A program made the position numbers. A DNA stretch of 64,000 bases, from assembly GCF_009931435.1 (NCBI RefSeq), contig NZ_CP043414.1; one strand, 5' to 3'. This document shows positions 1 through 3,000 of this stretch, in pieces; the first letter of the stretch is position 1, and every line of letters starts with the position of its first letter. Source of the DNA: Escherichia coli. Lineage in GTDB: Bacteria > Pseudomonadota > Gammaproteobacteria > Enterobacterales > Enterobacteriaceae.

Positions 1-3000
1 AATGTGATTTCTTTTGATTTCAACTTATTATAGGAGGTCTCTATAAGATGTTTGTTTCTGGAGAATTTAACATTTACAACCTTTTTGAGTCCTTTTACTA
101 ACACTATGTTGTCGTTTTCTAACACAATGTGAATATTATCTGTGGCTAAATAGTAAATATAAAGTGAGATATTGTGACGTTTTAGCTCAGAATAAAATAA
201 TTCACAGTTTAAATCTTTACGTACTTGATCGAATATTTCTTTAAAAATGGCAGCCTGAGCCATTGGTAAACCTTCCATGTGATACGATGGCGCGTAGTTT
301 GCATTATCGTGTTTATTGTTTCAATCTGGTCTGACCTCTTTGTGTTTTGTTGATGATTTATGTCAAATATTAAGCCTGTTTTTAATGAATAGTGTTGATT
401 GCGTAACAAAATTGAGCCTTGCTGGCATCCAGGAGGGATATGCAACCGACAGATGTATGTAAGGTCGATGTACTCAAACTTTCATACTTTTCCTCTTTTA
501 TGCAGTAAGATTTGAAGTAATATTTTAACCGCTAGATGACGAGCAAACGCATGGAGCGACAAAATGAATAAAGAACAATCTGCTGATGAACTCTCGTTGG
601 ATCTGATTCGTGTAAAAAATATGCTTAATAGCACCATTTCTATGAGTTACCCGGATGTTGTAATTGCATGTATAGAACATCAGGTGTCTCTGGAAGCATT
701 CAGGGCAATTGAGGCAGCGTTGGTGAAGCACGATAAGAATTCGAAGGATTATTCCCTGGTGGTTGACTGAGCACCATAACTGCTAATCATTCAAACTATT
801 TCACCTGTGACAGAGTCAATATCGCATTCTGTCACTGTCAGGCTAATACAGAGCTGCAATTCAACTACTGCAATGTCCTCGTAATTAGGTGAATTTACAA
901 TATCGTCCTGTTCGGATGCCGGCTGCATTGCTGAAGATGAGGCATTTATGGTTCGCATATTTTCCCCTCATGCTCGTCAGTCCTGTGCGTAGGAAGAAAC
1001 AGGACACTCACACTAATTTGTGTGGGCATGCTGTGATGTCCTTCTGAATTATTCCTATGCCATTATGTAAAGCGCTGTATCAGATGCTCGTCACGGCTGT
1101 CAGGCTGTCAGGCTGTCGGGTCCTCCCGGTGGGGGCCCCTGCCACGGGGCGGGAGCGTCGCGGAAAAAGGCTAGTTTTTGCATTTCCATGGCGGCGGCAG
1201 CATGTTTGGTAATTTATTGATAATTAAAAGTTATTTCTCTTTTCACCTGTACAATATTTTTTTCTCTCTGTCATTAGACCAGTTTGCAATTAATTGAAAT
1301 ATATAAATAAACATGATTTTCACCTGCCAGATGGAGTTGCTTATGTCAAATGTGAGCGGGATCGGTGATGCTTATTACTGGAGTGTTTTTAAAATCGCTG
1401 AGGCCTTTGGGCTTCACCGGGACACAGTAAAAAAACGGCTCCTCGCGGCCAACACTCCTGTGGCTGCGACTGTCAGGGGGAACCCCGTTTACGCCCTGCA
1501 GCATGTCGGGCCAGCCCTGTTTAGTGTGAAGCATGAGGCAGCAGACTCTGTTCATGATCCATCCCGTATGGAGCCGAAAGAGAGAAAGGACTGGTACCAG
1601 TCTGAAAATGAAAGGATCAAGCTGGAAAAGGAGCAGCGAAAACTCATCCCCGTTGATGAAGTAGTCATCGTCTATTCGTCCATGAGAAAGGCTGTCGTCC
1701 AGGTTCTGGAGACAATTCCGGATGTTCTTGAACGCGATTGCGCCCTGACTCCTCAGGCCGTCGGCGTTGTACAGCAGGCCATTGATGACCTGCGATACAC
1801 TCTTCAGGAAAAATCCTACGAGGCTTGTGCTGCTGAATTAATTCCTGATGAGGAAGGAGAGAGTCTCTAGGAGGAATAATGGGTTTTTCATCAGCCCGAA
1901 ATTTGGGAAGGGACATATCGGCAGGATTTTCCCCACCACGTCGCATGCCGATTTCGGAGGCTGTTAAAAAATTCATGCGTGTTCCCAAGGGGGCTGGTAA
2001 CTCGGTGCCATGGGATCCTGAACTGACACCCTACATCATTGAGCCCATGAACTGCCTGGCATCGCGTGAATACGATGCGGTGATTTTTGTTGGTCCTGCG
2101 CGAACAGGGAAGACCATTGGTCTGATCGATGGATGGATTGTCTATACCATCGTTTGCGATCCTTCGGACATGCTCGTTGTGCAGATGACCGAAGATAAGG
2201 CCCGCGAGCATTCTAAAAAGCGCCTCGACAGAACGTTCAGAAGCAGTGCGTCGGTAAAGAAAAGAATGAGTCCACGTCGTAACGACAATAATGTCCATGA
2301 TAAGACGTTCAGGGATGGCTCGTTCCTTAAAATTGGTTGGCCCTCGGTCAACATTATGTCGTCGTCGGATTACCGGTTTGTCGCCTTAACCGATTACGAC
2401 CGTTTTCCGGAGAATATCGACAGCGAGGGTGATGGTTTCTCCCTGGCCTCAAAACGTACCACCACATTTATGTCCGCCGGGATGACTCTGGTGGAGAGCT
2501 CGCCGGGACGTGACATCTGCGACAGCAAATGGCGACGTAAGTCGCCTCATGAAGCGCCACCGACGACTGGTATTCTTTCCCTTTACAATCGTGGTGACCG
2601 CCGCCGCTGGTACTGGTCATGTCCGCACTGCGGTGAATATTTTCAGCCAGCCATGGATGCCATGACCGGCTACCGTAATGAACCGGATCCCTTTAAAGCC
2701 AGTGAGGCGGCGTATCTACTTTGCCCGCACTGCAGCGGCATTATCACTGCGGAGAAAAAGCGTGAGCTCAATAGTGCAGGAGTCTGGTTGCGTGAAGGTC
2801 AGGTCATTGATCGTAACGGCAACGTTTCCGGTGAACCGCGCCGCTCCCGTATCGCCAGTTTCTGGATGTAGGGTACATTTCTTACCTGTTTTTATGTTCT
2901 GGTGTCGTTTTGTAGTCTTTTCAATGAGTTGTGATTTTTGGTGTTTCCTCTCTTTACTTGATAATGAGTTAGTTTATCGCTTGTTATCGACTTGAAAGGA

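Follow-up and report, generated by a model that had tools for sequence, protein, structure and literature searches.

Candidate recognition elements for a DUF1441 small terminase in the cos site of an Escherichia coli lambdoid prophage

Background

Which sequences of a lambda-type cos site are read by a small terminase (TerS) that is not of the lambda Nu1 family? This question is raised by a 64,000-nt stretch of an Escherichia coli genome (RefSeq assembly GCF_009931435.1, contig NZ_CP043414.1), here called the window, in which positions 1-15000 cover a lambdoid prophage from its right end through the cos site into the beginning of the late operon. Two sets of short repeats flank the nicking site of this cos: a tandem array of GGCTGTCA just upstream of cosQ, and two copies of TTTTCACCTG between cosN and terS. 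We put the probability at roughly 60% that 1118-1342 is the lambda-type cos of a cdtI/Tritos-like lambdoid prophage, that the two TTTTCACCTG repeats are candidate TerS recognition elements, and that the GGCTGTCA array lies outside cos. The comparison with the lambda R sites, which an earlier note on this DNA had drawn for the repeats, stood up to sequence comparison for the downstream pair, with the core TCACCTG rather than the T-run as the counterpart, but not for the upstream array as an element of cos.

The architecture of lambda cos (cosQ-cosN-I2-R3-I1-R2-R1, acted on by gpNu1 and integration host factor, IHF) is textbook material. Published accounts of the lambda site (PMC4856287, PMC6739421) describe how gpNu1 reads the R elements through a winged helix-turn-helix (HTH), and Gifsy-type phages have already been listed among the phages with a lambda-like cos (PMC4856287). 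Phage-inducible chromosomal islands (PICIs) that carry two cos sites have also been published, as have helper-embedded PICIs that share about 0.25 kb of cos with their helper (PMC6739421, PMC10111431).

Results

A lambda-type cos site with a class-specific cosB

The prophage cos runs in the order cosQ, cosN, a common AT-rich segment and a class-specific cosB. Farther to the left, window 780-916 matches lambda 47954-48090. The heptamer GGGTCCT lies about 30 bp upstream of the cosN nick, as in lambda-type sites, and is identical to a lambda segment that we take to be cosQ, for which the source is said to be Wieczorek and Feiss, 2001. It is unchanged in all three cos copies of the window (copy 1 in the prophage, copies 2 and 3 in a satellite island described below) and was kept in nearly all of 136 related cos instances. 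The records of phages cdtI and Tritos both have window position 1147 as their first base (GGGCGGGAGCGT...) and end in ...CCACG, and because they start there the cosN nick can be placed at 1146/1147. The Tritos record is linear; with the overhang length taken over from lambda, the cohesive end would be 12 nt long.

Two classes of cosB could be told apart, class A in copies 1 and 2 and class B in copy 3. They are alike from cosQ to about +44 (offsets are counted from the nick) and wholly different beyond. Perfect matches to the IHF consensus WATCAANNNNTTR number three in the 64 kb, all on the minus strand and all at +64 to +76 of the three cos copies, the diverged class-B copy included, and YAANNNNTTGAW was seen at this position in every cosB class retrieved. 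Judged by consensus, an IHF site lies within or next to cosB as in lambda-type sites, and IHF is predicted to bind at 1210-1222. A promoter and terminator scan of 700-1500 gave nothing at either repeat.

The TCACCTG core is kept amid diverged flanks

The earlier note had placed the two TTTTCACCTG copies at about 1241 and 1318. The pair is real, but its exact starts are 1240 (site A) and 1317 (site B), and the positions given are those at which TTTCACCTG begins. Both copies do lie between cosN and terS, that is, between the start of the cohesive end at 1147 and the terS ATG at 1343, site B being 17 nt upstream of the ATG. Their TCACCTG cores, at 1243-1249 and 1320-1326, are in direct orientation and 77 bp apart. 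Seven copies of TTTCACCTG stand in the window where 0.55 would be expected, and among dinucleotide-shuffled versions of the cosB interval (184 nt, AT-rich) 3.9% held a direct repeat of at least 10 nt.

Comparison with related cos sites located the conserved part of the repeat. Site B was unchanged in 31 of 31 distinct E. coli class-A cosB variants, although it adjoins 4-5 hypervariable nucleotides, and site A showed occasional single-base variants only (TTTTTACCTG, TCAGCTG, TGACCTG and TCACCGG). Among relatives whose TerS is 89-96% identical (L173, L175, L178-L183), much of cosB has diverged, yet TCACCTGTACA is kept at +98 and TTCACCTGCC at +175. What these relatives have lost is the 5' T-run of TTTTCACCTG, while the core is kept; therefore, the conserved unit appears to be TCACCTG. 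In L080, an island-type copy, the spacer has been rewritten and both sites are retained. In the Providencia phage PSTCR8lys, whose TerS is 56% identical to that of the prophage (TerS-A) with a nearly unchanged HTH region, GTTTTCACCTGACAG is placed as in the prophage relative to both landmarks, at +174 counted from the nick and at -23 counted from terS; GTCACCTC is found in this phage too, within the arms of a 15-bp inverted repeat.

TCACCTG was the sole 7-mer, apart from those of low complexity, that recurred within most of the diverged cosB regions. Counted as TCACCWG, it has 23 occurrences across 17 dereplicated cosB regions of the TerS-A clade (0.8 expected, an enrichment of about 30-fold) and none in 7 dereplicated class-B cosB regions. 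In 8 dereplicated relatives, among them the Providencia phage, it stands at -23 relative to the terS start, and the distance of site B from the nick is constant (+174/+175). The expectation that the downstream repeats would be conserved in related phages was thus borne out for the core, which tracks the N-terminal type of TerS. Flanks that drift around a fixed core are the pattern predicted for a protein-binding site, and by these alignments the TCACCTG core is a phylogenetic footprint. More distant TerS relatives from Aliivibrio, Vibrio and Aeromonas (31-42% identity) have cosB regions too diverged to align; AGGTG near their start codons was considered as a site and rejected, as these are Shine-Dalgarno sequences.

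A third TTTCACCTG occurs at 799-807, about 350 bp upstream of cosN, within TTTCACCTGTGACAGAG / ATTTCACCTGTGACAGAG (798-814). ATTTCACCTGTGACAGAG is close to the terS-proximal site of the Providencia phage, GTTTTCACCTGACAGAG, and the homologous spot in lambda reads TTTAGTCTG. This copy was considered as a TerS-A-linked site and set aside: it is also found upstream of class-B cos sites, and no link to TerS-A was found. The hexamer CTGTCA is enriched in the window (47 vs. 28); as a half-site common to both kinds of repeat it was dropped, its copies at 829-840 being conserved in lambda.

The N-terminus of TerS changes with the cosB class

TerS-A is 100% identical to the TerS of cdtI and of Tritos, and its start was set by alignment to the Providencia homologue and by RefSeq. 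A Pfam scan of TerS-A returned DUF1441 (PF07278) as the only match and no Phage_Nu1, which places it outside the gpNu1 family by that measure; a PDB sequence search with TerS gave no match. The island encodes a second DUF1441 protein, TerS-B (12837-13322), directly after cos copy 3. BLAST aligned the two proteins over residues 76-150 (48% identity), whereas their N-terminal 75 residues are unrelated. Since this N-terminal switch coincides with the switch in cosB class, TerS is likely the reader of cosB.

An AlphaFold (AF2) model of TerS-A, built on a shallow alignment of 5 sequences, has a predicted local distance difference test (pLDDT) score of 84-89 over residues 11-60, taken in blocks of ten. 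Residues 7-60 are predicted to form a strand-helix-turn-helix-hairpin-helix. Foldseek placed 46-54 of the residues at 1.5-2.7 Å on MerR-like winged-HTH DNA-binding domains with probabilities of 0.9-1.0, the matches including RacA, BldC, Xis and 7lwr_A (a viral packaging motor). The N-terminus of TerS-A is accordingly modelled as a winged HTH, and it is in this predicted fold class (MerR-like winged HTH) alone that it would resemble Nu1.

The upstream array varies in unit number

The earlier note had also described three tandem GGCTGTCA units just 5' of cosQ, and the sequence agrees with Tandem Repeats Finder (TRF) on this point. The array reads GGCTGTCA GGCTGTCA GGCTGTC, or 2.9 units, and the following base completes the third unit as GGCTGTCG; TRF reports a period of 8 and 3.4 copies over 1090-1117 (score 47). 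Its 3' edge adjoins GGGTCCT.

Conservation of the array in related phages, in contrast, failed to appear, an outcome that the note itself had held to speak against a role. IMG/VR was scanned for the cosN core and for TerS relatives, giving 129 distinct cos contexts. In 70 of these (27 with class-A cosB, 36 with class B and 7 unclassified) the array is absent although cosQ and cosN are the same. Two units (GGCTGTCAGGCTGAC/GTC and variants) were found in about 51 contexts, three perfect units in 6 and four in 1, alongside both cosB classes and both TerS classes, so that unit number (0-4) is unrelated to cosB class. Two, three and four units were seen within the same flanking context, among near-identical phages. 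Tritos has three units and cdtI, with the same TerS and cosB, has none; in cdtI, lambda-like ...GATAATCACTCTCATTTTGGC precedes GGGTCCT where the array would stand. Phage cdtI is reportedly inducible. Neither satellite cos copy has the array, and their homology to the phage cos begins exactly at cosQ.

No open reading frame (ORF) was supported across the array, which cannot be coding because steps of 8 bp shift the reading frame, and RNA folding of the array gave no signal (z=0.03). Expansion is confined to perfect units, a signature of replication slippage. Polymorphic in unit number among near-identical sequences and free of coding constraint, the array is, on this comparison, a slippage-type variable-number tandem repeat (VNTR) in non-essential DNA left of cosQ, outside the functional cos. 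It looks dispensable for packaging. Its likeness to bacterial VNTRs, that is, perfect non-coding 8-bp units, head to tail, varying from 2 to 4 in near-identical sequences, is marred by no difference that matters; it merely sits beside cosQ.

Other blocks of cosB and a shared 77-bp spacing

Near-invariance among TerS-A relatives of at least 89% identity is also a property of the block at 1268-1286 (Table 1), in which GACCAGT resembles the site core. The first class-specific block, at about +55, is degenerate in the prophage itself (CAGCATG) and carries an inverted GACCTG or CACCTG in L173, L178, L181 and the Providencia phage; an inverted element there would produce the order inverted R / IHF / R, comparable to R3-I1-R2 of lambda.

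Class-B cosB holds a 31-nt direct repeat at +38 and +115 (P=0.007), also 77 bp apart. The class-A TCACCTG pair and the class-B repeat thus have their spacing in common, and they differ in register from the nick. In copy 3 the repeat lies at 12688-12710 and 12765-12787 (23-31 nt; TTTT(A/G)TTC.TCATCAC..ACACCGTT). In copy 2, a 39-nt direct repeat (72%, spacing 77) matches the second IHF-like element to the segment made up of the first IHF site and site A. An extended 77-bp module was sought in phage copy 1 and not retained: local alignment there recovers the 10-mer only (P=0.08), which is suggestive only.

A satellite island in terL carries two further cos copies

The gpA-like terL is split into an ATPase domain (1879-2871) and a nuclease domain (13569-14681) by a co-oriented island of about 10.7 kb (2862-13571). 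The attachment core CTGGATG occurs at both junctions (2862-2868 and 13565-13571), terL is interrupted at 2868 and 13572, and joining 1879-2868 to 13572-14681 restores an unbroken TerL of 699 aa. The island encodes an integrase, an HTH protein, a BRO-N protein, a primase, a single-stranded DNA-binding protein (SSB) and a ClpP-protease/capsid fusion. The order int-HTH-BRO-...-primase-SSB-capsid agrees with the RefSeq annotation of a homologous island, and the same layout is found in O121 and other E. coli genomes. Insertion in terL is that expected of a helper-embedded PICI, and on the evidence of its layout the island matches the published helper-embedded configuration (PMC10111431).

The two satellite cos sites, separated by 2540 bp, agree fully in cosQ and cosN but belong to different cosB classes, and the pair recurs in about 10 IMG/VR contigs (e.g. 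L008, L009, L019, L023 and L081). As the earlier note had observed, both TTTTCACCTG copies are present in copy 2 (10204-10213 and 10281-10290) and neither is in copy 3. Homology of copy 2 to the phage cos begins at cosQ, with nothing leftward, and ends about 25 bp beyond site B. The two sites are retained by at least 12 distinct cos-2 sequences from satellites, none with terS downstream.

Several other features of the island were recorded. A GC-rich hairpin with a T-run, resembling a terminator, lies directly 5' of cosQ in both satellite copies (10057-10078 and 12593-12619), and a further hairpin and T-run just 3' of copy 2 (10341-10364). The prophage cos has no such terminator, as would be expected if late transcription must cross cos. 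A mechanically called ORF of 527 aa at 5212-6795 is probably not a real gene; the homologous RefSeq island has small genes on both strands there (YlcI/YnfO, Icd-like, DUF4222). Elsewhere, a repeat scan of the whole window found two tandem 107-nt copies, 75% identical and spaced by 132, at 32508-32746.

Table 1. Cos-site features of the prophage and satellite in window coordinates
Feature	Position	Strand	Remarks
GGCTGTCA tandem array	1095-1117		2.9 units; sequence and TRF
cosQ-like heptamer GGGTCCT	1118-1124	+	identical to lambda 48473-48479; 29 nt 5' of nick
cosN	1147-1158	+	cohesive end GGGCGGGAGCGT; 12 nt by analogy with lambda (GGGCGGCGACCT)
First class-specific block GGCGGCGGCAGCATG	1190-1204		possible degenerate inverted R element; CAGGTC/CAGGTG in relatives
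IHF consensus WATCAANNNNTTR (TATCAATAAATTA)	1210-1222	-	perfect match; +64..+76 from nick
Site A, TTTTCACCTG	1240-1249	+	candidate TerS recognition element; +94 from nick; conserved core TCACCTGTACA 1243-1253
Most conserved cosB block CTGTCATTAGACCAGTTTG	1268-1286	+	near-invariant in TerS-A relatives
Second, imperfect IHF-like element CAATTAATTGAAA	1287-1299	-	1 mismatch; about 30 nt before site B
Site B, TTTTCACCTG	1317-1326	+	candidate TerS recognition element; +171 from nick; conserved core TTCACCTGCC 1319-1328
terS (TerS-A)	1343-1870	+	Pfam PF07278 (DUF1441), E=1.6e-44
Satellite cos copy 2	10081-10314	+	cosQ, cosN, class-A cosB; IHF 10174-10186; no terS follows
Satellite cos copy 3	12621-12836	+	same cosQ/cosN; class-B cosB, no TCACCTG; IHF 12712-12724

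Discussion

In the reading that we hold most likely, the N-terminal winged HTH of the DUF1441 small terminase encoded just downstream would recognise the two TTTTCACCTG repeats. TerS-A would bind the TCACCTG elements, and possibly the +55 block too, while IHF would bend the DNA between these elements. The bent complex may then let TerS anchor the gpA-like TerL at cosN for nicking, with cosQ serving termination. The satellite would have copied the unit from cosQ to site B exactly, so that the helper terminase could package it. Copy 2 may be seen as an evolutionary minimal cos, which fits the use of the helper's TerS-A, and copy 3 would pair a class-B cosB with the island's own TerS-B.

Besides cosQ and its distance from the nick, this site and lambda cos have in common a cosN that is rich in G and lies at the genome termini, an AT-rich stretch next to it, a match to the IHF consensus within cosB, short repeated elements between cosN and terS, and a TerS with an N-terminal winged HTH (here modelled) followed by a gpA-type TerL. 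However, TerS is here of the DUF1441 rather than the Nu1 family, TCACCTG stands in place of the lambda CGTTTCC, cosN is GGGCGGGAGCGT, and there are two clear direct sites 77 bp apart where lambda has three with R2 inverted. The DUF1441-TerS phages Gifsy-2, mEp460 and mEp043 and the Stx phages share the TerS family, the cosQ/cosN/IHF layout and the gpA-type TerL, but they have another N-terminal TerS domain, and their cosB is typically an inverted repeat around TGTTTTTTGTTC with no TCACCTG. This Gifsy-type cosB is the class found in satellite copy 3.

Among satellites, EcCICFT073 (cos1/cos2) likewise has two cos sites with phage-like cosQ and cosN, the island has about 0.25 kb of cos in common with its helper at about 90%, as was reported for 11capE/50icd (PMC6739421, PMC10111431), and helper-embedded PICIs sit, as here, inside a late gene of the helper in the same orientation. 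In EcCICFT073, however, cosB differs and is read with Rpp, whereas copy 2 keeps the helper's own cosB; and neither 11capE nor EcCICFT073 has a terS, whereas copy 3 has its own of the DUF1441 family. The lambda cos layout and cos sharing by helper-embedded PICIs are therefore known. The assignment of TCACCTG is new: R elements for a DUF1441 TerS were not found described, a literature search on DUF1441 having returned only incidental mentions in genome annotations.

Several observations weigh against this assignment. The 10-mer repeat by itself is only marginally non-random (P=0.039) and its T-run is of low complexity; most of the evidence on conservation, the TCACCWG counts included, is drawn from related sequences and does not represent independent events; and the Foldseek matches of the model have weak E-values (0.04-0.9), the model itself coming from 5 sequences. 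Natural phages tolerate single substitutions in site A. At 77 bp (7.3 helical turns) from each other, the sites are repeated directly and not inverted as R3/R2 of lambda are, and more distant members of the clade mostly have inverted pairs. The top-conserved block of cosB is another sequence, CTGTCATTAGACCAGTT (1268-1284), and the fixed distance between site B and the terS start fits an element linked to translation equally well.

Three other explanations were weighed. The real TerS-binding elements could be GGCGGCGGCAGCATG, at the lambda R3 position, and/or CTGTCATTAGACCAGTT, in which case the conservation of TCACCTG would have some other cause, for instance a site for a host protein or the bendability of the DNA. 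We consider this rather unlikely. Classes A and B do part at about +44, the location of R3 in lambda, the R3 of lambda-like phages, gifsy-1 included, lies near bp 50-65 (PMC4856287, Fig. 1), and the GACCAGTT block is the most invariant segment of cosB, persisting in L080 and L192. However, 1190-1204 varies among relatives with at least 89% TerS identity (CAGCATG, CAGGTCT, CAGCTCT) and in several of them is an inverted (G/C)ACCTG, that is, the same motif; GACCAGT is one mismatch from the L173 site-A variant GACCTGT; and the motif enriched across the clade is TCACCWG. Improbable, in our judgment, is that site B belongs to the translation-initiation region or 5' leader of terS and acts in RNA, site A being an incidental second copy and the pair no DNA-binding array. 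The weak within-sequence repeat statistic would agree with this, as would the constant -23 position in E. coli and Providencia phages and a GGAG Shine-Dalgarno sequence at 1332-1335, just 3' of site B. Translation leaves unexplained, however, why site A is kept at about -100 in diverged flanks and why both sites persist in satellite copies without a downstream terS, and site B is fixed relative to the nick as well.

For the upstream repeats, the alternative is that the GGCTGTCA array has an accessory function at cosQ or in packaging termination, for instance by binding a protein or bending the DNA, with termination tuned by the number of units. Its direct contact with cosQ and the frequency of the two-unit form in one lineage (about 51 of 129 contexts) speak for this, but the 70 contexts that do without it include cdtI and both satellite copies, which have a terminator hairpin in its place, and its indifference to TerS class, its variable length in near-identical phages and the missing structure signal make such a role highly improbable.

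A broader and more speculative idea, which we hold to be doubtful, starts from the candidate TCACCTG elements and the common spacing. DUF1441 terminases might read modules of an IHF site plus an R site head to tail with a 77-bp period (+94/+171 in class A, +38/+115 in class B), the MerR-like winged HTH occupying direct repeats in the cooperative manner of BldC and not binding inverted sites as a dimer. A satellite with two cos specificities, one from a helper cosB that lacks terS and one from a foreign cosB accompanied by a terS of its own, might then be packaged by two helper classes.

Conclusions

The lambda paradigm is unchanged by these results, and the GGCTGTCA array is of interest only as a possible strain-typing polymorphism. 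If the two TTTTCACCTG repeats are indeed TerS recognition elements, TCACCTG would define the packaging specificity of a widespread group of E. coli lambdoid prophages, the cdtI- and Tritos-like phages, among them toxin carriers and hosts of helper-embedded satellites. The satellite in terL would then be recognised through its copied cosQ-to-cosB unit of the helper, and the satellites open to mobilisation by a given prophage could be predicted from a simple sequence marker.

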